Source: Psilocybe cubensis (taxonomy: Eukaryota). Taken from it: 64,000 bases of DNA. Both the position numbers and the translations under genes were made by a program. Under the pieces are notes generated by a model. That model had not been told where the DNA came from. It saw only the letters and a program-made list of their open reading frames with translations, and ran no database searches. The stretch lies in contig CM039003.1 of NCBI GenBank assembly GCA_017499595.2, positions 1,798,001-1,862,000 on the forward strand, in the 5' to 3' direction. Below, piece by piece: positions 26,432-62,267 of the stretch. Position 1 is the stretch's first letter; each line of letters starts with the position of its first letter.

Positions 26432-29217
<2,786 letters not shown>

Positions 29218-34119: not shown

Positions 34120-34149
34120 CTTGAGTTGAGGGCCGTTGCTTCGCACGGC
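34120..34149 (-). terminator. Helitron 3' terminus: GC-rich hairpin + 12 nt ending CAAG, followed by host T
   Basis: Minus strand reads GCCGTGC-GAA-GCAACGGC CCTCAACTCAAG|T; hairpin at 34132-34149. Homology with copy 2 ends here. Confidence 0.85.
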
Positions 34150-34283
34150 GATACGAGTCCTTGATTTCCCTCACCCTATGATAAGATTAGATACTGATAT
34201 CATCATATTGTATAATATAAATAAGAACATCATAAACATTACGTAAATATTTATGTTAAGTTGCGTGTACTGTAAACGCCAGT

Positions 34284-39644: not shown

Positions 39645-39818
39645 TAAACCGTATGCCAGTGCATGGTATCAATCCACACAATTAGCGCAGTCGATACATG
39701 AATGTTCAGTGTTATATAGATAGTTGCATGCTATATATATATTTTATAACTCGTTGATGAGGATGTCTGTATTGGTTACATTGTAGAGCATACAACACAT
39801 ATGACATACAGTAAACAA

Positions 39819-41296
39819 TTATGGCAAATGAGTACTAATGTAAATATCGTGTTCGTGTCTCATCTGATTCCGATTAGCATTCTTTCTCTTTTGAGTTTCA
39901 TAGGCCACACAACAATTTTCGGTTGGCGTCAATAGCTCGCCATCCACTATTTGATCAGCTCCTCGATCAGTGGGCAGTACTTGTTTGACCACCAATACCA
40001 CGCCATTGGTATCCTTCCTAGAATGCACACGTCTGACGCATTTACCCGCGTGTTCTCCTTCAATGATGGCTAATAACCCAAAGTCGTGCTTGATGGTAGG
40101 ATGTTTGGGCTTTATATGGGTCGATTCAATCCGTAACGTCCGCTTCGAATTGGGTGTAAATCGCATCATGCACAGCTGCCCATCCACGTCCTCCTGAACG
40201 ATTACAAACAACGGAGAAACGTGTCCATCGACGGTTGCCTCTTCCACCGTCAAAGGAACTCCAATCAGCTCTCGTTTCAACAAAAGATTACAAGGAGTGG
40301 TTAAAGATGCAACGTTGGTACCGTCGCTTGAATTTACGACGACGGTTCCTATGCTAATGCTTGTTAAATCTTCTGAATGGTCAGATGGATCCCACGCAGG
40401 CGAGGTGTCCTCAATAGTATCAGGCAATGGTGTATGTCTGCCACTGTCAGCGCTTTCAGTTCCTGTGGTTATTATGATCGATGGGTTGGCGAAGTTACGA
40501 GACTGGTGGACAGCGTTCGAATCATACGTCTTCGACAGGCTTAGAGGCTCAAAGGTACTACAAGCCGTGAGCGCGAGTACAAATCGGTAAATGAAATACG
40601 CTTACCTGTATTCCAGTACGTCGTCTCTGTTCAAAACAATTTTCTTGAAGGGATTCGACGGATCATATCGAGTCGGCTCTACAACTAAACGCAACTCAGG
40701 TTGACCTGTTCTTGGGCTTACGGACTGTAGTACCTCGGCGACAATGCCGATTAAGCCTTTGAACGTATGATGTACCTTGCTCACTATCACAGTTACACCT
40801 TTCCAACGATGATATCGGGTCGTGTGTGATGTTGGGATAAGCGCGAGGAGCGATGAAGGCTGACATGTCGTCGCATCTCCCAGAGAAACGAAATTCCTGT
40901 GCATATATATAATCTGAGATGTATGCATGAGCCAGAGTATATATACGGTTAAATGACAAATACTTGCCTCCAACATCGAGTCGGCTGTATTGATTTGCTG
41001 GTCTTTTGTAGTGCCTTGCTTATCGATTAGTTGTATTTCATCTCCCTTGATGTCCACGACCCAACCCGATCGTCCAGCATTAACGCCAGCGTCAACCCCT
41101 ACGTAATCCCCTATTTCGAAATGTTTTAAGATGTCACTCCATACGGTGCGTATTGTTGTCAACAGCTGGGTCGTAGTTGTATCAACTCTGTGGATTTCAG
41201 TTTCGTTGTAATGTTGACCAGTTTCGTCATGGTCGCAGCCTTTGTTGTATATATCGACATCGACCATATTATCGTCGTCGGCTTGCGCAATGACTC
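39819..41296 (-). CDS. Helitron cargo: Spt5-like gene, 3' part only (truncated by the gap), copy 1
   Basis: Same sequence as 49913-51390. Confidence 0.75.
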
Positions 41297-41396
41297 NNNN
41301 NNNNNNNNNNNNNNNNNNNNNNNNNNNNNNNNNNNNNNNNNNNNNNNNNNNNNNNNNNNNNNNNNNNNNNNNNNNNNNNNNNNNNNNNNNNNNNNN
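41297..41396. other. Assembly gap (100 N)
   Basis: Run of exactly 100 N, probably a placeholder of unknown true length. Confidence 0.99.
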
Positions 41397-43642: not shown

Positions 43643-44213
43643 CTCGAAAGCTACAGTACATTTACATTGACTTACCCTGTATTTATAGGGTTCGAGAGGT
43701 CGAGCACAGGCTTGGAGTGATTCTTGCACGGATCGTAAGTCGTAACAGATGTACTGATGTAAAAAACGAGACAGTATGTTCGGACCGAAGCATGTGGTCA
43801 AATTATGAAGACATGTTAGACGAGGGCAAGGCCATTAGTGCATTGTTGCAAAGAATCCATCAAAGCGGAGTCATTGAAAGATCCATCCCATGCGGGAAAC
43901 CCGAATAGACGCATCTCATGGCTAAATGGTAGCATCGTTGATGAGCTCGTACTATGCTAGCCGCACTTGTACAGGATCGACGTGAAAGCGTTCGACAGGT
44001 ACGTCGTGTTCGTAGATAGCAAAAGTTTCTTCACAAACTTGGCTTGGAAGAAACAGTCAATGTTTAGAACCCTGCCGATACCAACACTCACCACTTACCA
44101 CGATTGCTACCTTGCTACTCAACAGTTCCTAAAACAGCCCATAGGTTGCCAAAGTTGCAGGTATTGGCGTTGGCCATATTTAGATCTACTCGGGGTCGTC
44201 ACACATGATCTAA

Positions 44214-44243
44214 CTTGAGTTGAGGGCCGTTGCTTCGCACGGC
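44214..44243 (-). terminator. Helitron 3' terminus (hairpin 44226-44243 + CCTCAACTCAAG|T), copy 2
   Basis: Same sequence as 34120-34149; outer flank TTAGATC differs from copy 1 (TAAGAAC). Confidence 0.85.
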
Positions 44244-44377
44244 GATACGAGTCCTTGATTTCCCTCACCCTATGATAAGATTAGATACTGATATCATCAT
44301 ATTGTATAATATAAATAAGAACATCATAAACATTACGTAAATATTTATGTTAAGTTGCGTGTACTGTAAACGCCAGT

Positions 44378-45059
44378 TCAATCGTCGAATCTAGGCTGCT
44401 TCAAATTACTCCAATCCCATCTTTCGCGATCCCATGAAGGAGGCCTGGTGATAACGTCAGGATGACATCGTACAGTATACTGATCCATCAAATTCTGAAA
44501 ATCTGTATTTGCATTATAATTAGACAGTGTAGAGTACGAATTCGTGTTTGGGAAACCTACAGTTGCCTTTGCTAGTTACTATCAGCCTCGTTGACGGTAG
44601 TTGAAATGGCTCTTTCATCGATAGTGAAGTTGATGAGGCTGTCTCTTGAATTGAGTTGCTTGAGGTTATTGGCCGTGGAGGCACTGATTCTGTCATCGAC
44701 CTCGCTGACGACTTTGCCCGACCGTTGCAGTTACTCTTTTTCCGTCTGTTGATTTGAATTTTTGAACGGCTCTACACAATGTATGTTAACGAAAATTAAA
44801 AGTGTCCTTAATGATGGTTCGCACTCACCTTGTGGTTATTCGAATGTCTCGTAAAATCGCATCTCTTGAGATGCTTTGTCCAATGTTGAGGGTCGAAGGG
44901 CCATTTCTTCGACAGTAATATGCTCTTCCCGCAACTTTTACACTCCACTGAGTTCTCAGTGACCGATGCTGCCAAGGGGTCACTCAGTAGGGCGTTACGC
45001 CTTGCGATAGCTCTTTTGTAGGAACTACTTTCCGTAGCGTTGTCGTGCAAGACGTCCAT
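44378..45059 (-). CDS. Helitron cargo: small C2HC zinc-finger-like protein, copy 2
   Basis: Same sequence as 34284-34965; C-x2-C...H-x3-C motif preceded by RR..LL.DP....V. Confidence 0.6.
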
Positions 45060-45799
45060 GTAGAAGTAGAACTTCGCTAACCAGATGTTTGGTCGTTGAC
45101 ATATGCAAGCACGTGCTACGTAGGCTTTTGAAGTCCGACGCGATGATATCGTTGCCTGCACCGATGGGGCGTGCATACAATCGATGTTATGGAGCGGTCG
45201 TTAGTTTGCGCGGTCGTGTTTTGGTATACCGTTGATGTAAGGCAGTGACAGTTCTCCTGAATTTTTTTTTTTCAAGGTTAACGTGGAGGCGTTTCAATCA
45301 ACAAGACAGCGAGGAGCAATTCACCTCGCCACGATATTTTCCCCATATCTGTTAAACTGGGTGGATGTTCGAAAGCATGATTTTGTCAGACCTGTGTCAA
45401 CAGATGTTGAGATAAGCTGTATATTATATGGGCCGAGGTTAGCACGTAGAACAAACTTCGTTTTGACGCCTTCAGTGAATGCAAACGCACATTCCGTTCA
45501 GGCGTGCAACAATCCTCCCGTTGCCCGTTCAACTCATTAACTTTCTGTTAATTCGTAGTACAGTATATGTTCTGAAGGATAGACAGCCAACGTGCTGTCA
45601 ACCGGCTTCGGTGAGGGTCCGTTTATTTTCGTTCGTTCGATCTCAGTCCAAGCTCGTCTACAGTCAGGAGTGTGAGTATACATCGACTTTCACCGTGCAA
45701 TCGGTCTCTCACCTGAATCAATGTATTCCAGACAACTAATATCGATTATACCCGTTGTACCGTATTCTCTCAGTAGTGCATCGAGGGGATTCGGTCATG

Positions 45800-48145
45800 T
45801 TATAGTGTCTCATACCACTCGATACAAGTTTGACCGCAGTAGACCGTTGACGGAAATGAAGAAAAGTGACTGGTATCGCATGGTTTCCACCCTAAAAGTT
45901 GCTTGAGGTTATCAGTGGCGCAACAATCTAAGAGGGGGAAAGTTGTTTGGGTGCTACTTACTGTCAGGATTCTTTTGTATTGATAGAGAGGCGTACCGCC
46001 CAGACCGTCGAGGGCACTTTGAAAATTGTTGATCACACTGCATTTATAAGTCAGTTGACTCTCAAATACTTTGGCATAAAACTAAACGACTTCATGTTGC
46101 ATTGCGTCAGAAACCACGGAGTGTACGGAAGAAGATCATAGCAGGATGTGAATGGAATATAGGAGACATAGAGGAGTGTACGCAATGCACACAACAGAAC
46201 CCCGGAAGCGGACTGAACAGGCATGTGATCTACCAAAATACCTACTGTCCACTTCCGTTACTCAGAACTGCTTACAGGTGTTACCTTTGTTTCACATTTG
46301 CTAATGGCCGTACAATTGTGTGCACTAGAGGAATGTGCGTCTTCAACAGGCAACAGTGCCCTCATCAGCACGCAGTCCTTCTACCTCGCACCTTCAGTAC
46401 ACTCCATCCAATGATACTCTTCACCACAAAAGATTCGCCCGCTCCCTCATCCTCCAACTTCTCCAACCATAGTTGATCAACAGCTCGTAACCGTATGAAG
46501 AGGATGGAAGAATGTACCGTGATGCCTGTGTTACCGTGAGTGTCAATGTATCCTCTGAAATATACTTTCATTTGAGTGCTCGTGTCTCTTTGCACCATCC
46601 ATCCACCTTGGTCAACGTCTTTACGACAAACGAACGGATAGGTGCGAGACTGTGAGATTAATTGCCGTCTGCTAGGCGCTCGTGAGTTTCACCCTATATT
46701 GTCAACATAGCATGGCACTCACATACAAATAGAGATCCGGGTTCGATCAACCAGTCCGCAACACACTTACTCATACATTGTCGGTGCACACCTAACTGGG
46801 ACAACGTCAATAGACGCACCGACATATAGCATAGAAAATGCGGTCCGACGGACGTTAGCGCGTGTATTGGTTTGGAATTCAGCAACCGTGCAACCTCAAA
46901 TCACCCAAACAGAGATGGATCAAAGTTTCTTTGTACACCGCCTACTCTTCAACCCATCCAGTTTCCGTAAAAAACTGCTTAAACGGGAGTCGGTGTTTGC
47001 AATGTGGCACGTCGAGCGTACTGTCGTGAGTTTCAATGTGTTCATAGACCTTCGTCCGAGACATGCTGAAAATGGATGGGTCGTCTAACTTCAGCAAAAA
47101 AACACAAGACATTTACAACGCATGGGACGCGAGATACGGATTAAGACGGCGTCTGGCCAACTGTTAAACGCTAAAGTCTGTATGACTTGCTGTGTATCCA
47201 CCGTATAGTTTCGCACTCACAATAATAGGTAGTTCCAATAAGAGGTGTATACAACACGATACGACCCGGCATGTTGGAGAAGTTGAAATTCCTAGATCAA
47301 AGTTGTATTCCATGGTACGTACCCATATTTGAAATGTCTAAATGCGGTGGCTTAATGCAAAATCTGCAGATGTTATTAGTTGGCTTCGTACGTTGTCAGT
47401 TTTTTTTTTTTTACGTGTTCGTGAAGGAATCCCAAGTAAGTCTAGAGAGGGTGATACAAATAACGTGAAAAGACTTACCTCTGTGTCAGTACTTCAACAT
47501 GATAGTCCGCCTCTTGACTATGGACATTTATTGGGGTCTTTGTATCTGCGGTGTAACGTCAGGCAATACAATTGCGCGCAACAGGGCACTTCAATGGACC
47601 AAAATCATTATGCCACACCTATGAACCATACACCAGCATATAAATGCGCTTAAGAATAAACCATACCTACGTCGTAGGTTTGTTTCGAACAGGCTATCCG
47701 AGCTGAACGAGTATTCAAGATGACCTATATCAAACAAAGCGTTTCCGTAGCACCTGCACCGCATCGAGTGTGACTGATATGGCTTGTAGTGGTTCGTTCG
47801 GATAAATATTCGTTTGGAGGTCGATGCAGAGTCTGAGTCTGTTCATGTCGGTATCAAGATGGCCTTCGTATCGATGACCTGGGCGATTCGGGTGAGTCTT
47901 CGACACCTGGCGATACTCTCGATTATGACACTTATCTCAACTCCTAGCAACGGACACCATATACCAGAATGCCGTTGTATATTGGACAACATCTCAGGTA
48001 GGTCGCCTGGTGTAAAGTTAAAGTTTATCATGTCCAGAGTCATGCGCGTATGACATCGTAAGCTTTTATATCCTGATTATGTTTGAAATTTACTCACCAT
48101 CGCCTACAAGAGGGCGTGATATCTGTCTCGGCTTTCATTCAATCA
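45800..48145 (-). other. Probable further intron-rich cargo gene(s) of unknown function (also at 35706-38051 in copy 1)
   Basis: Short open frames bounded by GTRAGT/GTGCG donors and YAG acceptors on the minus strand (e.g. VINNFQSALDGLGGTPLYQYKRILT|gtaagt). No recognisable domain; gene model not resolved. Confidence 0.3.
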
Positions 48146-48397
48146 TGGCTTCTCATGGTCTACAGCGTCTGAGTCGCTGATTCGATGTTGTAGTAGCCCG
48201 TAAACAGCATTATCAGCCAATGTTCGCTTGTCCGATTTCCGTTTGGAGCCCGCGCTCTGAATGCCGAACAATCCGTGACCAGCGACGAAAGTCCATATAT
48301 GGTGGCCTTCCCATTTTCCATTTGCCACGTAATTTGTATCCCGCCAACTTCTTACCATCACCTGCATCTGCGGCCCCTCAAAACCAGCGAACAAAGA

Positions 48398-49738
48398 ATG
48401 GACGTAAATATAGGTAAGGCAGCATTCTTCGTAAACCTTTTCTAACAACAAACTAACGAACTTATTTGTTTCCTCTTTATTTTACAGTCGCAGCATACGG
48501 ATTGGCTTTCAGCCATGCCTTGGCCATTTTTTTGGTCGTCTTCAGGCTCATTATCAGGCGGTGCGACAAACGGTGTTGGTACGACGATGGGCTGGCGGCT
48601 GTGGCTGTGGTTGCAGACTTTGTCATTGCCCTCACATTGTTTAAATTGGGTGCGTTGTGATACTTTTTTTTTTTTTTTTTTTCTTTTTGTAGCCAGTCTT
48701 TTTTTATTTTACATTGATTGACATATATCATGGGGTTGCTATGTATAGCCATCGACACACCTACCGCCCTTCCTGTTTCCTACCGAGTCGAACTATTTGC
48801 GTTCTTTATAGTTTTGTGGTGCGTAGTCACTTTCCACAACAAGCATGGCCACTTATTACTACGAATGCGCTGTCCAGGGTCTCCCGCGCCAGTATAGTGC
48901 TATCACCGAATCGACTGCACAAGGCCAAACAACTCCGTGTATTATGGGGCTGGCTGTACGCTGTCATATTCATCGCAATCGGCATTATCTTCTCCACTTT
49001 CGCCATATTTGTGTGCAAGGTCAACACCGATTGCAAGTCGGATACTGTGTGTCCATGCCAACCACCTTACATTCTGCTGTTGTTTTCTCTTATAGGTAAG
49101 TCACACTTCATCTAATCGACTGCCCATTGCTGACTGCTATATAGCTGAACTCATTGCTGATATCTTGATTATTCGACGAAGCTGGACTATACTAATAGTA
49201 GAAACCCGCGTGTCCTTTTTCAGACTGACGCACCGTTGGCGTGCCGTCGCGTTAGGTTACAACAGCAGCGTTTTCATAATGCTGTCCAGCGCCGTGTGGT
49301 TCGGGATTTACGTCAAGTTAGCTCAACAATATCCAATGTTAGTTGTGTATGCATTAAGCGCTACTGTGAGTTCTTTATCTACACCATCATCTACAACATT
49401 GCTTCATTCTGCCTCAGGCCCTCGTGTCCTTATTGGCCATCAATGTGCCCGTCATCACGGGACCTCCAAGCAACAAAGGTCGTCGCACCCGCCTTCCAGT
49501 TGCGGGGCAAGACGTCATTCAACTAAATCGTCTCCAACCAACCACCGCTGCAGGACATGATGTTATTCAACACAATCGTCTCCAACCGATGACCGATGCG
49601 GTAAATCACGAAACATTGGCAAATATAGCAGAGGCAGTGGATCGCAACGCTTCCAAGATATACAGTGACAAAGATTCAGGCAAGGACATACAGTTTAGGG
49701 CGCCCAATAATTCTGTGGAAAGTTTGTTCGACGACTAG
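48398..49738 (+). CDS. Helitron cargo: Pth11-like / fungal rhodopsin-domain 7TM protein, copy 2
   Basis: Same sequence as 38304-39644; antisense to the element and convergent with the Spt5-like gene. Confidence 0.7.
49502..49597 (+). repeat. Two degenerate 48-bp tandem units in the 7TM gene tail (AGQDVIQLNRLQPTTA / AGHDVIQHNRLQPMTD); also at 39408-39503
   Basis: Visible 16-aa duplication. Confidence 0.8.
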
Positions 49739-49912
49739 TAAACCGTATGCCAGTGCATGGTATCAATCCACACAATTAGCGCAGTCGATACATGAATGTT
49801 CAGTGTTATATAGATAGTTGCATGCTATATATATATTTTATAACTCGTTGATGAGGATGTCTGTATTGGTTACATTGTAGAGCATACAACACATATGACA
49901 TACAGTAAACAA

Positions 49913-52616
49913 TTATGGCAAATGAGTACTAATGTAAATATCGTGTTCGTGTCTCATCTGATTCCGATTAGCATTCTTTCTCTTTTGAGTTTCATAGGCC
50001 ACACAACAATTTTCGGTTGGCGTCAATAGCTCGCCATCCACTATTTGATCAGCTCCTCGATCAGTGGGCAGTACTTGTTTGACCACCAATACCACGCCAT
50101 TGGTATCCTTCCTAGAATGCACACGTCTGACGCATTTACCCGCGTGTTCTCCTTCAATGATGGCTAATAACCCAAAGTCGTGCTTGATGGTAGGATGTTT
50201 GGGCTTTATATGGGTCGATTCAATCCGTAACGTCCGCTTCGAATTGGGTGTAAATCGCATCATGCACAGCTGCCCATCCACGTCCTCCTGAACGATTACA
50301 AACAACGGAGAAACGTGTCCATCGACGGTTGCCTCTTCCACCGTCAAAGGAACTCCAATCAGCTCTCGTTTCAACAAAAGATTACAAGGAGTGGTTAAAG
50401 ATGCAACGTTGGTACCGTCGCTTGAATTTACGACGACGGTTCCTATGCTAATGCTTGTTAAATCTTCTGAATGGTCAGATGGATCCCACGCAGGCGAGGT
50501 GTCCTCAATAGTATCAGGCAATGGTGTATGTCTGCCACTGTCAGCGCTTTCAGTTCCTGTGGTTATTATGATCGATGGGTTGGCGAAGTTACGAGACTGG
50601 TGGACAGCGTTCGAATCATACGTCTTCGACAGGCTTAGAGGCTCAAAGGTACTACAAGCCGTGAGCGCGAGTACAAATCGGTAAATGAAATACGCTTACC
50701 TGTATTCCAGTACGTCGTCTCTGTTCAAAACAATTTTCTTGAAGGGATTCGACGGATCATATCGAGTCGGCTCTACAACTAAACGCAACTCAGGTTGACC
50801 TGTTCTTGGGCTTACGGACTGTAGTACCTCGGCGACAATGCCGATTAAGCCTTTGAACGTATGATGTACCTTGCTCACTATCACAGTTACACCTTTCCAA
50901 CGATGATATCGGGTCGTGTGTGATGTTGGGATAAGCGCGAGGAGCGATGAAGGCTGACATGTCGTCGCATCTCCCAGAGAAACGAAATTCCTGTGCATAT
51001 ATATAATCTGAGATGTATGCATGAGCCAGAGTATATATACGGTTAAATGACAAATACTTGCCTCCAACATCGAGTCGGCTGTATTGATTTGCTGGTCTTT
51101 TGTAGTGCCTTGCTTATCGATTAGTTGTATTTCATCTCCCTTGATGTCCACGACCCAACCCGATCGTCCAGCATTAACGCCAGCGTCAACCCCTACGTAA
51201 TCCCCTATTTCGAAATGTTTTAAGATGTCACTCCATACGGTGCGTATTGTTGTCAACAGCTGGGTCGTAGTTGTATCAACTCTGTGGATTTCAGTTTCGT
51301 TGTAATGTTGACCAGTTTCGTCATGGTCGCAGCCTTTGTTGTATATATCGACATCGACCATATTATCGTCGTCGGCTTGCGCAATGACTCCGAGCCAACC
51401 TGTAGATCTCATTACCACCCATTCCATGGTTCGCATGATCCATTCCTTTGGCTTTGGTATCGGCGCGTGATGGAGTGCGGGATGCCCACTCATACAAAAT
51501 GATGTATACGTCACGTAACTCAGACCTTCACGACATGAGGCAACGTGTCTGGGATCGTAGTCCACCCGGGCCAAACCATGCTCAAAGATCAGATCACCTA
51601 CGCGATAGACAGATGCTCTGCCTGATTCTATGTATAAATGAGAGTTACGAAGGCCTGTCGGATCGAATAGCTTAGGCGCGGGCACCGCAGTGTATGTCTT
51701 CCGTTTACGAGATGACTTCGTTTTGGTGGACACGTACTCGTAACGGGGGATCATAAGCATTGACACCCCCCACGATCCTTTCGAAACGACAAAGCCTACA
51801 TCGCCTTTGTATACACCTCGTTTAACCTTGAGCCATTTTCCGACCGATAGGTTCGTAATGTCCCCTCCCATGTACAACAGTTGCTGAGCCTCATTCTTAT
51901 CGATCGGACTCAGGAGCACGTCCGTAGTTTTTACGATGATGCCGGGCGATCTTTTGATAAGGTCAATCATAGGCTGATCCATCAAACATTCCAAGTATAT
52001 GTATCCATGTACAGAACTGCGTGAAAACGCGGACCGAATATGATGTTCTCGGCGCGAGTTTTTGAGTAAAGAAGCGACCGCGATTTCTTCGTATCCGACC
52101 TTACGTATTGTTCATCGATATGGTTGGCAACACACAAATTTAATTCGATGGTATTAAACTTACTTTACATCCAATCCTCCATGTAGGATAGTCCGTGGGC
52201 AGATTTTCGAAGCCCGAATCAGTGTTTCCGTGCGGTGACAAAACAGTAGGATTGTCAGCGTTTGAATACAATGGTTCCACACCCCGGTACATATCAGAGG
52301 CGGGCAGTGAGTGAGATCTACCACGTGTTCTCTCTTCAATTTGTTGAATTACGAGGGCCAGTCGGTCTCTCTTTGTAACAGGAATGGGTTTGTCCATTGC
52401 CACAGATGATGAACCGTCACAATCTTCATGGGATTGAGTTCCGTCGTCGATGAAGCATTCTGCGAGTAAATTTGGTTTATCTCGTATGTTGGAATGACAT
52501 GAGACTGAGTAAAACGAAATATTATGCGCACCAAATTCGTCAGATTCGGCTGAACCATCCTCTGAATCTCCGTGATCGACATTCGCTTCTAAGTCCAAGA
52601 ATGGGTTGGGAGCCAT
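49913..52616 (-). CDS. Divergent Spt5-like transcription elongation factor (acidic N-terminus, NGN domain, multiple KOW motifs), 5 exons
   Basis: N-terminus NPFLDLEANVD...FIDD. NGN: YPTWRIGCK|VGYEEIAVASLLK...IRSAFSRSSVHGYIYLE. KOW1: LSVGKWLKVKRGVYKGDVGFV...MIPRYEY...PAPKLFDP. Further KOWs: KHFEIGDYVGVDAGVNAGRSGWVVDI and WKGVTVIVSKVHHTFKGLIGIV. CTR remnant: GRHTP...SPAWDPS. C-terminal KOW-like: HIKPKHP...LAIIEGEHAGK. Confidence 0.82.
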
Positions 52617-53218
52617 AGGTAGTCTAAAAAGAAGCAGAAAAAAAATTAAAAATTTGCCGTTTATATGTATAGCATTGCGTGAGTAGATATAGACATACTA
52701 AAGCAACGACTCTGCAAAGCAGTCGCTGACAGGTTTAAGGTGTTCTTCAAAATGAACTATCGATTTGAACACATTTAGAATACCATCAATATTTCTATCA
52801 TATATCGTAATATAACCTACAGCCTAACAAATATTGTATATTAGCCTTGAAGATACGAATACTGGTACGATGTGGCAGCAAATGACAACGTCGAAAAAGG
52901 TGTTCAAGTCGGATAGGCACAGTTCTTAAACAGAGCGGTGAACGAAATTTCGGCAAGTTCCGATATCCCTTTGATGCGAAGGTATTAAAGGAACATGTAC
53001 GACATTCTCCCACGCTTTTGGATCGTCCTTTCAACCACACGATGCTCGATGCAATGTAGTCTATGGGTTCAGATTATACAGCTGAGTCTAATAGACTGAT
53101 ACGCTGCGACACTATCGAACGATAAATACCATACTGATATGAATATAAACAGTTGTTATCTGAGCATGTATCAACTGAGGCCTCCATAACCATAAAACAC
53201 TTTGGATAAATTTTCATC

Positions 53219-56200
53219 TTATTCCCTCGCGTAAATAGCATACAATGCATGTTTCAAGTTTCCCCCATTTACGGAAATGCGTAGCCATTGAGATACATCA
53301 TTAACAAGGTCATGAACATTACCCTCCTTTACGCATCTATTTCCAGTAGTAATGCCGTCGTGGAACCACACGTCCCCTTGCAGGTCAACATACCGAGAAA
53401 CAAAATGATGTTGCCCGCCGTAGACAACCCCAGTAAGCTTATACTCTACGTTGAAACTATCCGATTTGAACATAATATCAGGGTTTATAGCAAACCGTGG
53501 CGAGCATATATCCACTGTCATAATGTAAGGTAATCGTTCAACCTTATGGCATAGCGACATATATACGATATGCTGATTTTGTGCACACGAAGGGCAATTC
53601 TTCGAACTCAATCGTTGAGCATCGCTCAGGTTAAAACCTAAACTGTCTGAAATAGAAGACACCTCCTGGGAGTCGTCGTGGAAAACGCCAGTGCGTGCCA
53701 CACTTATATATTCGCCTAGTCGCATTACGGGTCTTTGGTCATTGTAGCCGCATTTACTGCACACGAGAACAGACATTCCAGAAGATCGCTGGCCCATCAC
53801 AGCGGTCATAACTCTGTCAATGTATGTCATATTTGGACCCATAGGAAAATCAAGCGGGCTGCGTGAGTGCATATCGTTTCTGACGTCGTTTCGTGCGCTC
53901 TCTAGAGAAATTGATCCATTCTGCACAAGTGCGAATTGTCCGCTGAGTCTGTCTAATAACGGTGTCAAATCACTGAATCTATTGGTCCACATCTCAGGTG
54001 CACTTATCCATAGGTTATATAACACGGTAAAGATGGAGTCGTAACTGCAACTGTAGTTGTCCGCGTCCCACTTTGTACCTACAGGTAGGACCGCAAACTC
54101 GGAGGGTGTGCTTAGCAACATTCGTTTCCTCGGTCCTATACAGTCTGAGCGAATTGGTTGGCGCTTATTGCGCTTATCTTTTGCCCTGTCGGTGACAATT
54201 GCCTTAACACTGTTGAGAGACCAGGTGCCGTCCTTTTCCGGAGTTCTGATAAGCTGCTTTGATGAAGAGACTGCCAAGGTAGGATGCCAGTCTGTACCAA
54301 TGGATTGCGATACGTCGAGAAGCATGAAAGACCGAATTGTCGGATTCCTTAATCCATGCAACACGCCGTCTGGAAGCTGTCCATTGTATTTCATGGTGGT
54401 GATATGATCTAATATATTGAGTTCACGGAATTCCTGGCGCAGGTGCCCACTAATACCCTTTGTAATCTTAGACGCATCGAATCTACCGAGTAAGATGGTA
54501 CCACTGGCGTTCGAACTTCTAGATACACAGGTGTAATAAGACGAATGATCCTTACAATGATCTAAATGTATCAAGTTATAATCTCGCGTCTTACCTTGAG
54601 ACGAATAATCGGTCATGGCAAAATTGGGCAGCACTAATACCTGCTGGCGGTTTACATTGATTTTTGTGCCAGACTTGAGAGTACATGTTACTCGAGACGA
54701 CGTTCGCGTAAGTGGAACAACATTAACAGGCAAGTCAGCTAATGATACAGGGTTCGGCGGTCTGATTAATTCCACGAACAGCGTATCAAGTACAGGTCTA
54801 CCAAACGCACCAACAGAAGATTCCCATCCTACGACGACAGCCTCCTGTCCTTTAGTGATACACAACTCTGTGGCGTCGTTATGCCGTATCATAACTGGCA
54901 GACCTACGCACAGAGAAAGTTTTGCTGGCACTTGTTCGCTAGAACAGGCGCTGCGACCCCATAGGGCTTCCTGAAGACGCTGGGACATCTTTGTCTGTTT
55001 GGTTGCTTTAGACGATCCTGATGGTCGTCCGCGAGGCCTGCGAGTTTCTCCTTCTTGTGTACCCAGACTATCGACAGAGAAAAAATGATGCAATGTACGT
55101 CCGCTCTCTTTAGCGTATCTTGCGATGCCCTGCTCATTGAACCTATCCTTTTGATTATTCCACGCAGTGATAACAGATACGTTGCGAAAAGCAGGGTCAG
55201 TCAATATAGGTTTACCTTCAATAGTCGTCAGTTTAGAAGCTAACCTTGACTTGAGGAACGATATATCAGCGTCTGTACAGGCGGCATACCGCATGTTTTC
55301 AAGTGCAGTGCGCAACTTTGCGTCTTCCTCAGTCTGCGTTTTTTGTCTCATGTTTTGTTTTAGAATAACGACAGTCGTGAATTGGTGCCAGAATATCTTG
55401 CCTAGAGTAGCTTCTTGCTCGGACACCTTCATGCGAGCGTCTTGCGTATGTTTAATGGAAGGACTATAAAAGGGGAGATTACCTACCGGCGGTAGCTGAG
55501 CGAAGTCACCAGCTAAGATCATTGATATACCTCCGAACAGTGTATCGTCGTTAAACACTTGTGACAGACGTCTACTAATGGCATATAAATCCCTCGACGA
55601 CAGCATAGATATTTCATCAATAAAGATATACTTGACACCCTTTAATCGAGCTCGTACGTCATTTATTACTGCGACTTCGTTTTTTGAAAAGTCTTGACCA
55701 CGATCCGACTTGGACCGTATTCCTAATACACTGTGATAAGTAGATCCGTTGAGGAGTGCAGCAGCGGTACCTGTGGGTGCGAGAACCACAAATCGGTGAG
55801 ATTCGCCTCTCGACTCAAACATATGAATGATAGATTTGATCACTTGACTTTTGCCAGTACCGCCCATGCCACCGAGATGCATCCTCAGCTGACCAGGCGA
55901 CAGCAAACTAGCGTGATTGGCAACAATACGGAAAGCCCTTTCCTGTTCCGTATTCAAGGTGAAATCGGCGACTGTAGAATCTACTAACACATTATGTTCC
56001 ATTTGCTTTGCCTTGTACGACCTGAGCAGATAATCCGAAGAAACTACTTTGACGTCATTAGTAGACTCTTCGTTGGAAATATGAATGTTTGTTATATCAT
56101 CTGAGGGATCTGAAGGCACGTAACCGGACAACTTCTGTTTAAACAGTCTAATTTTTTCAGCTTTTATTAGAGATGCCCAGCTCGTATGCGTCTTGTATTC

Positions 56201-59200
56201 AGCAGGCCTGAACATGCTGACTTCTTGACATGTAACATCGCTAGAGGCGTTAGAAAACAATCCTGCAGATTGTATGATGCCATCTACTTCTCGCTTTAAC
56301 AACACCTCTCTGCGGTATGCCTCACCAATCTCTTCATAATCTAAATGATCTTCACCGAATTCAAGGCCGACAAAGTCGTTGTATTGATCGTCGAGACCGC
56401 AACCATCAGGATAGAGTTCATCCGTGTAAACATCTTGTTGTTCTCCGTCTTTCCTTCTTAACTGTGCGTGAAAATCGTCTCTGTCGTCTAAACATTCATA
56501 TCGCAGATTAAAGTTATCCATTAGTTTCAACTGTCGGTCGGAAAAAGCGTAAATGGTGAATGCATGTTCCCAAGTCTGATGCAATGATTTCAAATCTAAC
56601 CCAGACCTCCAAGGTTTGAACAAGGTCAGCATACTGCAACAATAATACTCTCTGTCGCCTTTGTCGCGCCGTGGAAGGGGACCGCCTAGAAAATTGGGGA
56701 CAATATTGTGCGCTCGGGATGAGTCACATTTGACTACGTGAGTGGAATAAAGAGGGTGCTCCTCAGTGAAACGTTCAAAACTTCTTTTGTTTATTTTAAT
56801 ATTTTTTCGCACACCGTCATATTTAACACGTTGATCAGAATCATCATCTGCAGGTATACCAAGACATGCATCAATGAAATCTTCCATCCCCCCGCCTTCA
56901 CGTATGTCGGACGCATGATCATCTTCGAAGGTGAGTGTTTCACTACGCAAACGCTCCATTTCATTTTTAGTGAGCTTACGGCGCTCATAAGATCTAATCC
57001 AGTCGAATAGAGACATGTCTTCTTGAGTGACTGGGCGGTATTTATAATCATCTACATTACTAGAACCTACATAATGACCGTCATGTCGAGCTAATATAAC
57101 TTTCTGTTCTTCATCTTCAGCATTTTCTAGATCCTCTACGGTAGGTAGGTGGGCGGCTTGGTCATCAGTGATACCGGATTTATGACTGCTCCTTGCGTCA
57201 CTTACAAAACTTCTCCACCAAAAAGGTACAAAGGTATGATCAGTGTAATGATCAGGGTTGCCCAATAAATACAAGGAGGCCATCGGAGAACCTATCTCCA
57301 TCTTAGAAGACAGAGAGTTGACAATTTTAAGCATCAACCTTCTGCCTGCGTCTTTACCTTCAATCTTGACATCGTCTTTAACTTTTTTTTCTTCACGTTC
57401 AAACACGTCATACATAGAGGTAAATATCTGATACGTTTTCAATGCGGGTTTGCTAATATAGTCTGATATATAATATATTATTGCTTTTATCGAAGTACCC
57501 GACAACAGACATGTCACGTCGGTATTACTTCTTGTGAGGTACGACAGCGGAAGAGTAAAGGTATTTAACATCGCTTCCAACTTTTTCAAAAATATGTGAC
57601 CGTCGACGTGATCGACTTGAGACTGTTCGTACAGCCTTCGCGGAAATCGTGCTTTACAATTTCCATTCCAATCCAGGCAACCTTTCGGGCCCTTAGGCAT
57701 ATTTTTTATACCTTTTGATCCGTCAGGGTCATCAATTTGCTGACCGTATGAAACAGTGCATCTGTGCACATTGGACTTCAATATGATATCATCGACTGTA
57801 GTTTCGTAATTGTCCCACCATTCAGCATTAGAAATGCATGATGTGCAGTGGTCCGGACCATTGGAATCTTGACAAGCATGTTCTACCGGTATAGGGAGTG
57901 TTAGAGTCGGATCTGCGTAACTGGAATTTACAGCCTCGTCATCCTCTTGTATAATTGAATGAAGTCCATCAATTTCTTTGTCGTAAATATGTGGCACGCG
58001 GTCTTTAACAGTCTGCATGTTTCCTGTAAGAAATTCGCCTTGATGACAGCCTTCCAAATATGATAGAAGGCTCGCCTGAAATGCAGAGTCGTTGTTCATA
58101 ATACGGTCACGGATTTGCTGTGGAGACAAGCAATTCTCAATCCATAGTAACATATGCAAATGTAAGGTGAGTCTTCCCTGCTGTTCTACCGTACCATAGT
58201 ACGCTGAAGTTTTACCATACAAACCTCGATGAATATTGGATCCGACGCCTAGCACGTGTTTAATAAACAATTCAATTATGAGATGAAAAAAACGGGCAGC
58301 CGATACGGGATTCTGTGCAACCAGTCTATTCCTTTCAGAAGAAGGTAATATGTCTGGTGTAAAGGTCAGCTGTTCTTTGGCATAATATATTGATATAGGA
58401 TGTCTGTTATCGGCAGGTGACAAGGTTATAAACCATATTGGGCAACCTTTGAAAGAAAGCAAAGACCATATCTCATTGCGCATATACTTTTTAGACGTGA
58501 TTGACCCTTTAACATATCCTCCAACGTGGTCAAGATCATCTAAAAGTTTGTAACAGTCTTTCTCACTGTCTGTTTCAGGTGATACATGGTCCCCATTTAC
58601 AAGACGAGAGGAAATGTCTTGAAGAACCGTTTTGTCTATAGAGAGCAATCTTTTAGATATCGCATCAAAATTACGGCGTTTTGCAACAAGAAAGCTACCA
58701 GTAACGCCACCTTTCAGTTGCTCGTGATTGAATGCAATAATAGGAAAATAAAGGTCGCGCTGGAAACGCTTATCATGGTGCATAAGCAGTATTCGCTTAT
58801 GTTCTGACTCTGAAAGTTTACGCTTATGACAATGCTGACCTATTCCACCATAACCGTAAGGAAATAGCCAAGGGAACATCTGCGGATAGGCCTGAGGATT
58901 ATCGTACATAGACTGCGGTTTTGGATCATGCCCAATAGCTAGCATTTTGCCTTCATTTTCTATGTGTTGCAAGGCTTTTGCCTTCAAAGCTTGTATGGAC
59001 ATATTGCCATAGTCTGTTCCACTCAAGCCATGGACAGTAAACGGACAAGGTCCGTCTACAGTTCCTTCATCTTCGCCTTCGTCGTGTAGACTCATTGTAG
59101 ACTCCATACGATTAGTACCGTTGCGCTGTCTGTAGTCTACAGCTACGGGGACACCTATCAGCGGGTAAGACTGGAGATTTTTCTTGGATATTTCAAGATC

Positions 59201-61576
59201 AATATAATCCTTATGGTTAAGTTTCAACCATTCCAGAGCATCTGCGACCTTATTGCGACGCACTAGCATTGGACTACGCTTGAACTCTTCTTCCGTGGGT
59301 TGGGTTGGTCCTGTAAATATAAAGGCAAGTACCTCGTCAAGTTCTGGCTTTGAAGGAGGTAATTCATGATACACTTTCAGCGTTGGATTAGAGTACATGA
59401 TGACATTTGCTGTCATTTTAGCCCGCCCAGAGGAAACTCTGACCAGACAGCGATTATGCCGAATGCGAGCAATCATCATGCGCTCTGCAAACGAAAGATC
59501 TTGCAGCTGAGAAGGTATTTTACCTAACCACAAATGATTTGCAAGCGAATGTCTCGGCACATGACCTTTTTTCAACGCAGCAGAGCAAGTATCGCATACA
59601 TGGTTACATGCAGGATCGATCACAGGGCCCGGGATGTCCTTCACCGGGTCGTCAGGATGTAATCTCTCTACACGGGTAGCTCCCTCAACTGCGAGTATGT
59701 CAAGGGGATGATCAAACATAGACAAGTGAGTTAAATTATGCAAAGGCTGCAGCAGACCGCAGACCATGCAGCCTGCTTCCTCCAGTAGAGATGCAGATGA
59801 ATCAGCGCAAAATCCATTGATGATTTCCTCTATCAGAAGCTTTGACGGTGGTTGTGGCGGAAACACATGGTCGTTTGAAGTGTGGTCAGAGTCTGATGTG
59901 GATACAAAAGCATCACCGTTGAGCATGTCAACATCGGAATTAGCAGATTCTGCGCCTGCCTGCCTCTGACGTTCTCGAGATGCTCGTTTATGTAGAACAT
60001 TTTGGTTACGATTATGCATGATTGACTCTTCTGAATTGACTGTACTAGGTATTGCCTCAAAGATATATAAATGAGTGGAACATATACCACATTCATGACC
60101 ATCTGTTAATTTTATCAGAGCAGATTTTTTGGTCTTGGAATTAAATGATGTAATACCGTGTTCTTTCAGTACATCCCGAAGCTCGCTTGAAGTGAGCCAT
60201 TTGGTTGCACTTTGTATAGAAAATCGACAAAGAACTAGACGGCGTTTGTGGGGTGCGGACGCTTCGGCAGAGAGAAATGACTCTAAATCACGTATGTACG
60301 GCATATACCTAACGAACTTGTATGTATCACTATAATTAAACGATGCTGTGCCACTATAGGGTACAATATGACTTTCTATTAAAGCAGATGAAACGAAGCG
60401 AGAAAAATTTACAGCACTGTCTGTAAGTTCAAACTGCCGATCTGGATTACAAGAAGATGAATTGCTCTTAATTTTTCTATCTGACACTGATACCACACGT
60501 TCAAAAATACAGACATTACGAAGGCAAGTTCCGCACACATGATCACGCAAAAGTTCAATGGCATTGCCTCTATTTGTGGTTGAATTGATGCCGTACACTC
60601 CATGTAAACTTGCAATAGACCTAATTTCAGAAACAGACAGCCAACTAGCAGTGTCAAAGAGAGAGAACCTAGCAACTATTAAATCAGATATATTGTCAAT
60701 GGAAGTTGAAATGTGAGCGTCTGTAGCAAGGTACTTCACAAATCTGTATTTAGTTTTAGCTTGAACGGAGGCACATCCCGTATCTTGTACCACACGGTAT
60801 CGCAAAATCTCTGAGCTGACAACCTTTGAAACACCGCCACCTCCGCCTTGCAAGACATCGGAAGGATGATAGTATGAGCATTCAGAAACATTAGCAGTAA
60901 ATGAGATGTAGTGGAAATAGTTGAGACCGAATAACCAGGAACACTGAAACGGATACATTAGAACGCCCTTCGATACTATATTAATGAAGGGATATTTCTC
61001 TGACCAAAGACGAGGTTGCGTGTAATGTCTGTCGAGCGTGAATTGATGCAAGGCGCATCTTGGCAAAATGGCTACCAGGCACCTATTATATTCCCACTTC
61101 CTGAGATGATTACGTTGGAGCAACAGAGATACTAAAATAGAAACTCTACGTGTATACGTTGCAGGCGTGAATCTTAACCACAAATAAGCCGACATTGAAT
61201 GACAATCAATATATATGAAGCGGCGAAATTGCGAGTGCAACAAACGCACATTTCCATACGAGTGGGACTGTTTGACGGGTATCTCAGAAGCGGACGTAGT
61301 AGTACGATTCAAGCAATGCATAACATGAACTAATACTACAGTAAGACGCACTCTACAAACTTTGTGCCCACTTGATACGCTGCTAGATCTAGTACATGTA
61401 CGACTACGCAATAGATTATTGCCAGGAAATCGAACATCGTAGGTTGGAAATTCCCCACAGGGTAAGCAAAAGTCTATTGACCAATTATTTGTTTTAAACA
61501 ACTGTTGATTGACAGCTATACAACTACTAAGCATCGATATTGTTCGAGAATCACCAGCATAATTGGATGCGTTCAA
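53219..61576 (-). CDS. Helitron Rep-helicase transposase (DUF6570-like + HUH/Y2 Rep + PIF1 SF1B helicase) with a C-terminal USP-like protease domain
   Basis: Stop-free 2,785 codons; the ORF begins at TTG, so the true start is uncertain. LANHLWLGKIP..LQDLSFAERMMIAR (DUF6570-like) and FPWLFPYGYGG. Rep motifs: WFITLSPADNRHP, GTVEQQGRLTLHLHMLLW (HUH, ~58141-58200) and YYISDYISK (~57451-57480). PIF1 motifs: GMGGTGKS (~55845-55873), LAPTGTAA, FIDEISM, GDFAQLPPV, LKQNMRQ, FAMTDYSSQGKT, YTCVSR. Confidence 0.95.
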   Translation of the reverse strand: MNASNYAGDSRTISMLSSCIAVNQQLFKTNNWSIDFCLPCGEFPTYDVRFPGNNLLRSRTCTRSSSVSSGHKVCRVRLTVVLVHVMHCLNRTTTSASEIPVKQSHSYGNVRLLHSQFRRFIYIDCHSMSAYLWLRFTPATYTRRVSILVSLLLQRNHLRKWEYNRCLVAILPRCALHQFTLDRHYTQPRLWSEKYPFINIVSKGVLMYPFQCSWLFGLNYFHYISFTANVSECSYYHPSDVLQGGGGGVSKVVSSEILRYRVVQDTGCASVQAKTKYRFVKYLATDAHISTSIDNISDLIVARFSLFDTASWLSVSEIRSIASLHGVYGINSTTNRGNAIELLRDHVCGTCLRNVCIFERVVSVSDRKIKSNSSSCNPDRQFELTDSAVNFSRFVSSALIESHIVPYSGTASFNYSDTYKFVRYMPYIRDLESFLSAEASAPHKRRLVLCRFSIQSATKWLTSSELRDVLKEHGITSFNSKTKKSALIKLTDGHECGICSTHLYIFEAIPSTVNSEESIMHNRNQNVLHKRASRERQRQAGAESANSDVDMLNGDAFVSTSDSDHTSNDHVFPPQPPSKLLIEEIINGFCADSSASLLEEAGCMVCGLLQPLHNLTHLSMFDHPLDILAVEGATRVERLHPDDPVKDIPGPVIDPACNHVCDTCSAALKKGHVPRHSLANHLWLGKIPSQLQDLSFAERMMIARIRHNRCLVRVSSGRAKMTANVIMYSNPTLKVYHELPPSKPELDEVLAFIFTGPTQPTEEEFKRSPMLVRRNKVADALEWLKLNHKDYIDLEISKKNLQSYPLIGVPVAVDYRQRNGTNRMESTMSLHDEGEDEGTVDGPCPFTVHGLSGTDYGNMSIQALKAKALQHIENEGKMLAIGHDPKPQSMYDNPQAYPQMFPWLFPYGYGGIGQHCHKRKLSESEHKRILLMHHDKRFQRDLYFPIIAFNHEQLKGGVTGSFLVAKRRNFDAISKRLLSIDKTVLQDISSRLVNGDHVSPETDSEKDCYKLLDDLDHVGGYVKGSITSKKYMRNEIWSLLSFKGCPIWFITLSPADNRHPISIYYAKEQLTFTPDILPSSERNRLVAQNPVSAARFFHLIIELFIKHVLGVGSNIHRGLYGKTSAYYGTVEQQGRLTLHLHMLLWIENCLSPQQIRDRIMNNDSAFQASLLSYLEGCHQGEFLTGNMQTVKDRVPHIYDKEIDGLHSIIQEDDEAVNSSYADPTLTLPIPVEHACQDSNGPDHCTSCISNAEWWDNYETTVDDIILKSNVHRCTVSYGQQIDDPDGSKGIKNMPKGPKGCLDWNGNCKARFPRRLYEQSQVDHVDGHIFLKKLEAMLNTFTLPLSYLTRSNTDVTCLLSGTSIKAIIYYISDYISKPALKTYQIFTSMYDVFEREEKKVKDDVKIEGKDAGRRLMLKIVNSLSSKMEIGSPMASLYLLGNPDHYTDHTFVPFWWRSFVSDARSSHKSGITDDQAAHLPTVEDLENAEDEEQKVILARHDGHYVGSSNVDDYKYRPVTQEDMSLFDWIRSYERRKLTKNEMERLRSETLTFEDDHASDIREGGGMEDFIDACLGIPADDDSDQRVKYDGVRKNIKINKRSFERFTEEHPLYSTHVVKCDSSRAHNIVPNFLGGPLPRRDKGDREYYCCSMLTLFKPWRSGLDLKSLHQTWEHAFTIYAFSDRQLKLMDNFNLRYECLDDRDDFHAQLRRKDGEQQDVYTDELYPDGCGLDDQYNDFVGLEFGEDHLDYEEIGEAYRREVLLKREVDGIIQSAGLFSNASSDVTCQEVSMFRPAEYKTHTSWASLIKAEKIRLFKQKLSGYVPSDPSDDITNIHISNEESTNDVKVVSSDYLLRSYKAKQMEHNVLVDSTVADFTLNTEQERAFRIVANHASLLSPGQLRMHLGGMGGTGKSQVIKSIIHMFESRGESHRFVVLAPTGTAAALLNGSTYHSVLGIRSKSDRGQDFSKNEVAVINDVRARLKGVKYIFIDEISMLSSRDLYAISRRLSQVFNDDTLFGGISMILAGDFAQLPPVGNLPFYSPSIKHTQDARMKVSEQEATLGKIFWHQFTTVVILKQNMRQKTQTEEDAKLRTALENMRYAACTDADISFLKSRLASKLTTIEGKPILTDPAFRNVSVITAWNNQKDRFNEQGIARYAKESGRTLHHFFSVDSLGTQEGETRRPRGRPSGSSKATKQTKMSQRLQEALWGRSACSSEQVPAKLSLCVGLPVMIRHNDATELCITKGQEAVVVGWESSVGAFGRPVLDTLFVELIRPPNPVSLADLPVNVVPLTRTSSRVTCTLKSGTKINVNRQQVLVLPNFAMTDYSSQGKTRDYNLIHLDHCKDHSSYYTCVSRSSNASGTILLGRFDASKITKGISGHLRQEFRELNILDHITTMKYNGQLPDGVLHGLRNPTIRSFMLLDVSQSIGTDWHPTLAVSSSKQLIRTPEKDGTWSLNSVKAIVTDRAKDKRNKRQPIRSDCIGPRKRMLLSTPSEFAVLPVGTKWDADNYSCSYDSIFTVLYNLWISAPEMWTNRFSDLTPLLDRLSGQFALVQNGSISLESARNDVRNDMHSRSPLDFPMGPNMTYIDRVMTAVMGQRSSGMSVLVCSKCGYNDQRPVMRLGEYISVARTGVFHDDSQEVSSISDSLGFNLSDAQRLSSKNCPSCAQNQHIVYMSLCHKVERLPYIMTVDICSPRFAINPDIMFKSDSFNVEYKLTGVVYGGQHHFVSRYVDLQGDVWFHDGITTGNRCVKEGNVHDLVNDVSQWLRISVNGGNLKHALYAIYARE

Positions 61577-62267
61577 GGAGTGTACATTAATGCAACATTG
61601 TATGTGGCCACATAGGATTCCTACAAAATAGCGACAAATGTCAGATCATACACAGTACACATAAGGAGAAGATAACTCACCCCAACCAGAAACTAAAATA
61701 AAAAGAGCGTAGAAATGAAGTGATGCGGCGAGCATATATAAAAGAGTAATGTAAGTTTCAAGGTAAATAGATATGTTCACTAGTCTGATGGATATGAGTG
61801 TGAGATCGATCAAGGGGGGGGGGGAGGAATGTGTAGGAATAATTAAAGGAATCGCATCGAGGACCCTCGATTTATATAAGTAGACACTGACAACAGGTAA
61901 CACCGGGTAACTCTGTGTAGCGTACGATTATTGACAACGGGCGCTTAAATTTTGGCAGAGGGGACACGCAAAGGAAAAGCATATGTCCAACTGTAATGCC
62001 ATGATAATATGTATGTATTATTATATCGGGAGAAATTTGTACGGAAGACAAGTAGAATATGATACGAAGCAGTTGATAAGACAGAATACTAACTGGATAT
62101 TCAAAGATACAGGAAGCAGAGTACAAATGACACGAAGAAAGAACAAAAACATTGAAGTAATAGACTACGCGACGTATATGATACCAAAAAATAACAACAG
62201 ATAGCAAGGAGAATGTAAATAATACCATAACTATGTGTATTAAAAGACATTAGGTTTAATGAAATAT

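Follow-up and report, generated by a model that had tools for sequence, protein, structure and literature searches.

The stretch of DNA considered here is a window of 64,000 nucleotides from the mushroom Psilocybe cubensis (contig CM039003.1 of assembly GCA_017499595.2, positions 1,798,001 to 1,862,000), to whose own numbering all coordinates below refer. Its subject is a minus-strand gene, with a start codon at 52616 and a stop codon at 49913, that encodes a diverged form of the transcription elongation factor Spt5 and that is carried within a Helitron transposon. The gene begins about 600 bp downstream of the replication and helicase gene of that element, RepHel (53219-61534), on the same strand, and the conserved 3' terminus of the Helitron follows it at 44214-44244.

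The coding sequence (49913-52616) is divided among the exons 52616-52532, 52459-52164, 52099-50700 and 50651-49913, which together specify 839 amino acids (aa). The first intron of this model was adopted from the public model P0001; the 839-codon frame is open throughout and its introns are canonical GT-AG. P0001 (744 aa) is 100% identical to the 839-aa model over the parts that they share, and the 466-aa central exon is 100% identical both to this NCBI entry, which is named 'Transcription elongation factor SPT5 [Psilocybe cubensis]', and to P0002, a 371-aa fragment. In both P0001 and a further public model, P0292 (789 aa), the conserved KOW domain at about 50890-50705 has been removed as an intron. 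A possible GC-AG intron at 51061-51008 was ruled out during construction of the model, as the segment aligns with the conserved I.E..VH.NWL motif of the homologs and is therefore coding. Just past the stop codon, at 49501-49596, there are two tandem 48-nt units that are 77% alike. A candidate relic terminus upstream of the gene, consisting of a hairpin and CTTTAG at about 52700, was no better than shuffled sequence (z -0.5) and was rejected, and a scan for promoters and terminators of bacterial type, a type of scan that is not applicable to a fungus, gave results at chance level.

The encoded protein can be followed domain by domain. It starts with an acidic, Spt5_N-like region (52440-52616, interrupted by a 72-nt intron at 52531-52460) in which 17 of residues 1-60 are Asp or Glu and in which a FLDLEA..VD motif aligns with FLDvEAEVDD of yeast Spt5. 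The NGN domain follows at 51875-52190 (YPTWRIGCK / VGYEEIAV...IRSAFSRSSVHGYIYLE...SPG), where it is split by a 64-nt intron (52163-52100); it is recognised by Pfam as Spt5-NGN and by AlphaFold2 (AF2) modelling. KOW1 and its linker 1 occupy 51455-51847 (GKWLKVKRGVYKGDVG...LMIPR...KRK...LFDP...FEHGL), as indicated by Pfam KOW1_SPT5 and by the Foldseek match 4ytk, and are succeeded at 51140-51427 by a KOW2-KOW3-like pair that is evident from AF2 strands 227-252 and 283-320, from the Foldseek match 4ytl and from a profile comparison with KOW2-3 of yeast. An additional KOW of the KOW4/5 type (RWKGVTVIVSKVHHTFKGLIGIV...) lies at 50705-50887, within a segment that is conserved in homologs and seen in the AF2 model; of the 17 family members, 9 have a match to Pfam KOW5_SPT5, and in P0013, the one homolog in which the position of the match was checked, residues 493-508 (E 2e-3) fall on this segment. 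The C-terminal repeat region (CTR) of Spt5 is represented by a single unit, SPAWDP, at residue 646 (50480-50497), which is the sole match to [ST]P.W[DN] in the protein, so that the 839-aa product does not possess a repetitive phospho-acceptor CTR. The family consensus around this unit, PAWDPSSRTP, aligns with the CTR repeats of Schizosaccharomyces pombe and Komagataella pastoris, an alignment that is not significant alone, and the paralog P0152 contains two such SPAWD units. The protein finishes with a tandem KOW6-KOW7-like domain and then a helix (49991-50353), assigned through AF2 and the Foldseek match 5ohq.

Considered as a single sequence the 839-aa protein falls a little below the curated Pfam cut-offs, with E 3.7e-4 for Spt5-NGN (20.8 bits against a cut-off of 22.4) and E 1.5e-3 for KOW1_SPT5 (19 bits against 22). 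The family to which it belongs is far more informative. Spt5-NGN is matched by 16 of 17 long members, and a profile built from these 17 sequences and run against solved structures in the Protein Data Bank retrieves the Spt5 proteins of K. pastoris, S. pombe and Saccharomyces cerevisiae at E 8.3e-54 to 2.5e-49. The best of these matches covers profile positions 3-424 and is collinear, passing from the FLDxEAEVD motif through NGN and KOW1 to KOW2-3. The same profile finds human SPT5 at 1e-36, Arabidopsis RDM3/SPT5L (8hyj_W) at 3e-28 and archaeal Spt5 weakly, with the result that fungal Spt5 outscores the human, plant and archaeal proteins. At a finer level, the family sequence IRSAF...GYIYLE aligns with ilSiF...GriYiE of S. 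cerevisiae Spt5, where by counting the Ser corresponds to S324 and the Glu to E338, and the E338-equivalent Glu is conserved in at least 90% of the 17-sequence alignment. E338 of yeast Spt5 reportedly contacts Spt4, an observation ascribed to Guo et al. in 2008. The substitution E338K is the spt5-194 allele, according to PMC4978902.

Predicted folds lead to the same assignment. The AF2 model of the 466-aa exon, made from a 149-row alignment, has a mean predicted local distance difference test (pLDDT) score of 78.8 and presents, in order, the NGN, KOW1 with its linker, two more barrels, a disordered stretch and a final KOW; the NGN (exon-2 residues 1-75) has a pLDDT of about 90 and the additional KOW (residues 405-465) one above 90. 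When this model is searched with Foldseek, W- and Z-type chains of RNA polymerase II (Pol II) elongation complexes lead the results to about rank 27, with a best E of 8e-14, and the chains 5oik_Z, 6ir9_W and 5xon_W are identified as SPT5 by the sequence search where both searches list the entry. Individual modules are matched by the KOW1-Linker1 structure 4ytk (template modelling (TM) score 0.78, root-mean-square deviation 2.9) and by the KOW2-3 structure 4ytl (TM 0.60), and the structural alignments to canonical Spt5 correspond to about 15-18% sequence identity. The C-terminal 245 aa are predicted, with a mean pLDDT of 78.1 that rises to about 90 over residues 90-245, to form a tandem barrel, for which KOW6-KOW7 of human DSIF (5ohq, E 5.2e-4, TM 0.71) is the sole match at E <= 0.001. 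The NGN fold, whose absence had been contemplated in an earlier note made from the letters of this DNA, is confidently predicted and matches Spt5 chains that include archaeal Spt5. That note had also proposed an ordered set of Spt5 landmarks, an acidic N-terminus and a single remnant of the C-terminal repeats, all of which are now borne out by profile, Foldseek and motif evidence, and the search for Spt5-NGN and KOW with hidden Markov models (HMMs) that it recommended succeeds with the family profile while single-protein Pfam scores stay sub-threshold. The gene is thus an Spt5-family paralog, highly diverged yet complete in its domains, an identity that the family evidence (profile, NGN matches in 16 of 17 members, folds and the breadth of the family described below) settles despite those sub-threshold scores.

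How large is this family, and how old? A full HMMER scan of 1.84 billion representative proteins, clustered at 50% identity, returned 546 clusters at E <= 1e-3, 181 at <= 1e-10 and 45 at <= 1e-30. The named members belong to Psilocybe, Panaeolus, Flammula, Pholiota, Cyclocybe, Armillaria, Amanita, Dendrothele and Hymenopellis; a Gymnopilus protein obtained in the RepHel search proved to be a RepHel and no member of the family. Neighbours in the ESM Atlas include several clusters of 50-168 members, mostly from Basidiomycota, that combine KOW1_SPT5 and NGN, and a scan of viral contigs with the Spt5-like protein found no relative. P. cubensis itself holds four lineages of the family, at least three of which have copies at several loci: lineage B (938-948 aa) is represented by five or more NCBI accessions, lineage C by several, and at least 14 P. 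cubensis accessions at NCBI bear the name 'Transcription elongation factor SPT5'. In Panaeolus cyanescens there are at least six clusters at 50% identity, all on contigs of 3.6-15.7 kb. The best non-self identity to the window protein is 35-38%. In a tree of 27 long members (MAFFT and FastTree, 720 trimmed columns, unrooted as no canonical Spt5 was among the matches listed) it is sister to a P. cyanescens protein with support of 0.99, the two being 35% identical and each of their branches measuring about 1 substitution per site, and Panaeolus pairs are likewise about 1 substitution per site apart. The gene therefore does not derive from a recent capture of host SPT5, an origin that the earlier note had set out as the contrary case, because its relatives are only 35-38% identical and belong to an Agaricales-wide family with long branches. 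Nor does it display the single-copy, slow and repeat-free profile of canonical SPT5, being found at four or more identical loci and in a polymorphic Helitron. Such features characterise a family propagated by transposons or driven by conflict and not a recent copy of the host gene.

The element that carries the gene is recognisable at both sides of it. Upstream is the RepHel open reading frame (ORF), which encodes 2771 aa on the minus strand at 53219-61534, is intron-free and matches the Pfam families DUF6570 (1e-39), Helitron_like_N (5e-33) and PIF1 (5e-27); 583 homologs were found at E <= 1e-20. In the protein collection there was no P. cubensis RepHel protein of 1524-4850 aa, the best RepHel match being metagenomic and 60% identical. 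The C-terminal 330 or so residues of RepHel (residues ~2440-2771; 53222-54217, minus strand) have Cys and His positions that are invariant in all 12 homologs aligned, with motifs WD..NYSCAYDSLF ... HFV.R ... WYHDG that resemble a papain-like protease or deubiquitinase; no Pfam match supports a VTD or OTU deubiquitinase in this Cys/His-rich domain, and VTD Helitrons are placed in animals by PMC9741609. Downstream of the Spt5-like gene, at 44214-44244 on the minus strand, is the Helitron 3' terminus, composed of a GGACTCGT..GCCGTGCGAAGCAACGGC hairpin followed by CCTCAACTCAAG and a T-rich flank, with the end of the element at 44214 +/- 2. Twelve nucleotides follow GCCGTGCGAAGCAACGGC, ending in CAAG, and the next base is T in both copies of the terminus in the window and in both consensus flanks from the read set X12, which is described below. 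The folding energy of the hairpin is unremarkable taken alone (z -1.1), and the terminal motif has two exact copies within the window. No terminal inverted repeat or long terminal repeat brackets the Spt5-like gene.

What gives the terminus its authority is its conservation in related Helitrons. A scan with the RepHel alignment yielded 80 metagenomic RepHel loci with 39-49% identity to the window RepHel, and the last ~36 nt of the window element recur downstream of RepHel, on the same strand, in metagenomic Helitrons. Ten aligned ends have an invariant GGACTCGT..GCC.TGC.AAGCA core and finish with ...CAAG followed by T, and one of the loci, L066, has a compensatory change in the stem (GCCAT/ATGGC). 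By a strict search pattern the terminus, whose motif can be written GGACTCGT..GCCGTGCGAAGCA.CGGC..CAAG, is present in 24 of the 80 loci, where it follows RepHel on the same strand. Because RepHel lies upstream and this clade-conserved 3' terminus lies downstream, the Spt5-like gene is within the Helitron, an active element, as cargo that separates RepHel from the ancestral terminus. The transposon-borne nature that the earlier note had claimed for the gene is thereby confirmed; of its description of the RepHel gene as AT-rich and intronless the second part stands and the first does not, as the GC content of the region is 0.40-0.46 per 2-kb bin in comparison with 0.40-0.52 over the whole window.

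The cargo as a whole extends for about 9 kb from the RepHel stop codon to the terminus (44245-53218, minus strand; the distance from RepHel to terminus is 8976 bp), and comprises the Spt5-like gene together with about 5.7 kb (49912-44245) in which no ORF exceeds about 150 aa. A 130-aa ORF close to the 3' end of the element (44808-45200, minus strand) contains a zinc-finger-like CKSCGK...HWTKHLKRC motif and has no significant Pfam match. Upstream of RepHel, at 62271-63179 on the minus strand, there are two ORFs (63179-62697 and 62546-62271), which by phmmer are conserved in related Helitrons: they have matches at E <= 1e-3 in 8 and 11 of the 80 metagenomic loci, upstream of RepHel and on the same strand, with one further match to ORF 62546-62271 on the opposite strand. 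Neither has a Pfam family, and they may represent either a second gene of the Helitron or 5' exons of RepHel.

The element is present more than once and its insertions differ between strains. Self-comparison of the window reveals that 44209-51390 recurs at 34115-41296, also on the minus strand, with one mismatch (99.986% identity), giving a second copy of the 3' 7.2 kb of the element that includes the 3' half of the gene (41296-39819, corresponding to P0002). This copy is truncated at 41297-41396, where the assembly has a gap of 100 N. The similarity between the two copies ends at the same point in each, just past a small hairpin and CTCAAG. The copy at the gap may be full length, in which case two elements in the same orientation would stand about 2.8 kb apart. 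A contig of strain X11 matches the left flank as far as 44214 and is unrelated to the window beyond that point, which constitutes an empty site, and 44215-64000 was not found in that strain. Among the X12 raw DNA reads, 140 plus 15 join the terminus to other flanks, 25 carry the empty allele and 118 share just the last 48 nt of the element (44212-44259). Depth in this one read set is even from 44001 to 64000 (43-64 per bin), as expected if RepHel, the gene and the 3' region have been amplified as one unit. Among the loose read ends listed, none marks a 5' boundary of the element up to 64000. An identical 744-aa protein is found under four NCBI accessions on three contigs, and its UniRef cluster has n=6. 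The element is consequently a young, insertion-polymorphic and multi-copy Helitron.

Differences among the X12 copies amount to 22 variable sites across 44001-64000, 13 of which are C>T or G>A. Of the fifteen sites that fall in the two reading frames, at least five are in CpG codon contexts (TCG>TTG, CGG>TGG, CGT>TGT, GCG>GCA, CCG>CCA), as expected for methylated repeats. Loose X12 read ends on both sides of 46204-46237 (27 and 19 reads) mark a place inside the cargo region where copies differ by an insertion or deletion. Two other data sets touch the stretch slightly: the contig set X14, guessed to be RNA, has only pieces of 18-21 nt on it and is uninformative on expression, and X8, which carries another organism label, has only short pieces of low depth. 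Elsewhere in the window a 433-aa ORF at 6875-8176 (plus strand), with Tc5 transposase helix-turn-helix and CENP-B N-terminal DNA-binding domains, is a pogo/Tc5-type transposase or a derivative of one, while Sas10/Utp3 (22511-23791, plus strand) and a cullin (26633-28006, plus strand) are ordinary host genes to the left of the repeat-rich part.

Fungal Spt5 is treated as a single essential gene, and specialised paralogs of Spt5/NusG, a universal elongation factor of RNA polymerase, are associated with bacteria, as RfaH-type proteins often found on mobile DNA, and with plants and ciliates, as host genes. Against this background the Helitron protein shares with the canonical Spt5 of S. cerevisiae, K. 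pastoris, S. pombe and human its domain order and the equivalents of S324 and E338. It differs from them in having a lone CTR unit where they have a repeat array and one core KOW fewer, as counted from AF2 domains, and in being encoded by a multi-copy, transposon-borne gene whose divergence between congeners is about 1 substitution per site. SPT5L/KTF1 (RDM3) of plants and Spt5m of ciliates are also lineage-specific, transposon-linked paralogs in which NGN and KOWs are kept and the C-terminus is changed. They are, however, single host genes for silencing, acting in Pol V or scan RNA (scnRNA) transcription, whereas the Helitron gene is inside the transposon, and the long WG/GW Argonaute hook of SPT5L has no equivalent repeat in the Helitron protein. 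In bacteria the NusG paralogs RfaH, ActX and TraB are specialised proteins encoded by, or acting on, mobile DNA, and RfaH is a small NGN and KOW protein recruited by the ops DNA element. These bacterial proteins provide the closest analogy for the way in which the Helitron gene might work, a functional likeness and not membership: an ops-type recruitment element, a fold switch and an operon logic are features of RfaH, and any resemblance of the Helitron to them is analogy only. Gene capture by a mushroom Helitron has a precedent in HELPO1 of Pleurotus ostreatus, which carries whole expressed cap genes downstream of RepHel that are found only inside elements (PMC4289320). The cap genes capA, capA2, capB and capC have no recognised domain (PMC4289320) and are compared with the present gene by description only; the main text of that paper is without the words KOW, NGN and elongation and does not mention Spt5. 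In full-text literature searches no transposon-borne Spt5 came to light, and as far as those searches reach the large multi-copy Agaricales family of Spt5-like proteins is undescribed in print.

What, then, might such a protein do for the DNA that carries it? Kinases, Paf1C/Rtf1 and capping enzymes act through the CTR repeat array of Spt5. The modelled architecture of the Helitron protein argues that it can still occupy the place of Spt5, since it has an NGN with Spt4-contact residues as well as the KOWs of the DNA clamp and RNA clamp. It would dock on the clamp of Pol II, with host Spt4 probably alongside, and so replace host Spt5, and the resulting elongation complexes would lack the P-TEFb/Bur1 switch, the recruitment of Rtf1/Paf1C and capping enzyme, and CTR dephosphorylation at poly(A) sites. 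The benefit to the element, or to the carriers of the family, would lie in altered transcription of their own long genes or in interference with host control. The more specific roles suggested in the earlier note, an RfaH-like anti-terminator or a decoy for Spt4 or Pol II, would be purely conjectural. That the gene provides an alternative Pol II elongation factor serving its carrier is, to judge from its sequence, quite possible if short of probable. A broader proposal, which is fairly unlikely in its full form, is that Agaricales transposons spread their own Spt5, as a eukaryotic equivalent of the NusG paralogs of plasmids and phage islands, and that it takes over from host Spt5 on Pol II, either (a) to allow elongation free of CTR-based pausing and termination control or (b) to tether RepHel. 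Under the second option RepHel would be held at the single-stranded non-template DNA of transcription bubbles, the substrate of its HUH nuclease, for rolling-circle excision or insertion.

Some observations weigh against a role for the protein in the service of the element. Among the X12 copies all three variants in the coding sequence of the Spt5-like gene are non-synonymous, with one more variant in a putative intron, as are 8 of 10 in RepHel, which gives no indication that purifying selection acts on the young copies. The Spt5-like family HMM finds the gene in 0 of the 80 metagenomic loci when run against their six-frame translations at E <= 1e-3 on either flank, where at least 2 kb of sequence is available downstream of RepHel in 15 and upstream in 48. 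The gene is therefore lineage-specific cargo that meets no general Helitron requirement; Helitrons of this clade can do without it, and it may be no more than a passenger. In the closest relatives, L001 and L040, which share the upstream ORFs, the ~1.7-1.8 kb downstream of RepHel is without it. The main alternative, a real possibility though with less than an even chance, is that the Helitron took up about 9 kb of genomic DNA in which a member of the family already existed, that the gene is useless to the element and that the biology of the family, be it a carrier transposon of its own or a host function, is to be sought elsewhere. The position of the terminus fits such an origin, as it is 61-277 bp past the RepHel match in 20 of the 24 loci in which it was found (1065-6981 bp in the other 4), which makes the 9 kb an add-on. 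So do the 5.7 kb of cargo without a long ORF, the mostly non-synonymous variants, the ~7 kb of other cargo, with ORFs of up to 258 aa and no Pfam match, that separates RepHel from the conserved terminus in L002 (8923-15890), and the unexplained cap genes downstream of RepHel in HELPO1 (PMC4289320). Yet the gene is intact and identical at no fewer than four loci, albeit in young copies, and at least two other P. cubensis lineages of the family are also found at several loci, which points to mobility as a trait of the family. Moreover, the conservation of the terminus implies that the cargo was inserted internally and not acquired by simple 3' read-through. As to other carriers, the N- and C-terminal extensions of the fused homolog models P0013, P0163/P0164, P0079, P0124 and P0138 contain no Pfam transposase and match neither the window nor the loci.

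The long-branched, conflict-like evolution of the family could alternatively reflect a host-side silencing factor, equivalent in fungi to SPT5L/KTF1 of plants or Spt5m of ciliates, which would promote non-coding transcription so that transposons are controlled through small RNAs or DNA methylation; the Helitron would then have captured its copy by chance or as a counter-defence. The known eukaryotic Spt5 paralogs do act in non-coding transcription directed at transposable elements (abstracts of PMC5416832, PMC8934623 and PMC3111484), the family profile does reach Arabidopsis RDM3/SPT5L, and both the fast evolution, which fits host-parasite conflict, and the CpG-to-TpG differences among copies, which are typical of methylated repeats, would suit such a role. 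Even so, it is distinctly unlikely, given a profile that fits canonical fungal Spt5 far better than SPT5L, a protein that has one PAWDP unit only in place of an Argonaute-hook repeat, and near-identical copies at many loci, which would be unusual for a host factor. That the gene is instead a decaying pseudogene, arising from a recent neutral capture of host SPT5, or an artefact of gene prediction is very improbable; single-protein Pfam scores under the curated cut-offs and public gene models that disagree are set against 839 open codons with canonical introns, confident AF2 domains, the profile match to Spt5 and a domain order kept whole across Agaricales genera in relatives as distant as those described above.

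A large mushroom family of Spt5 paralogs that are complete but poor in CTR and that travel on transposons would be without precedent and, within the literature searched, the first case of eukaryotic mobile DNA with an Spt5 of its own. The automatic naming of such P. cubensis genes as 'SPT5' can mislead ortholog tables and analyses of copy number. The family would, in addition, offer a natural experiment on how an Spt5 without the CTR array acts on Pol II.

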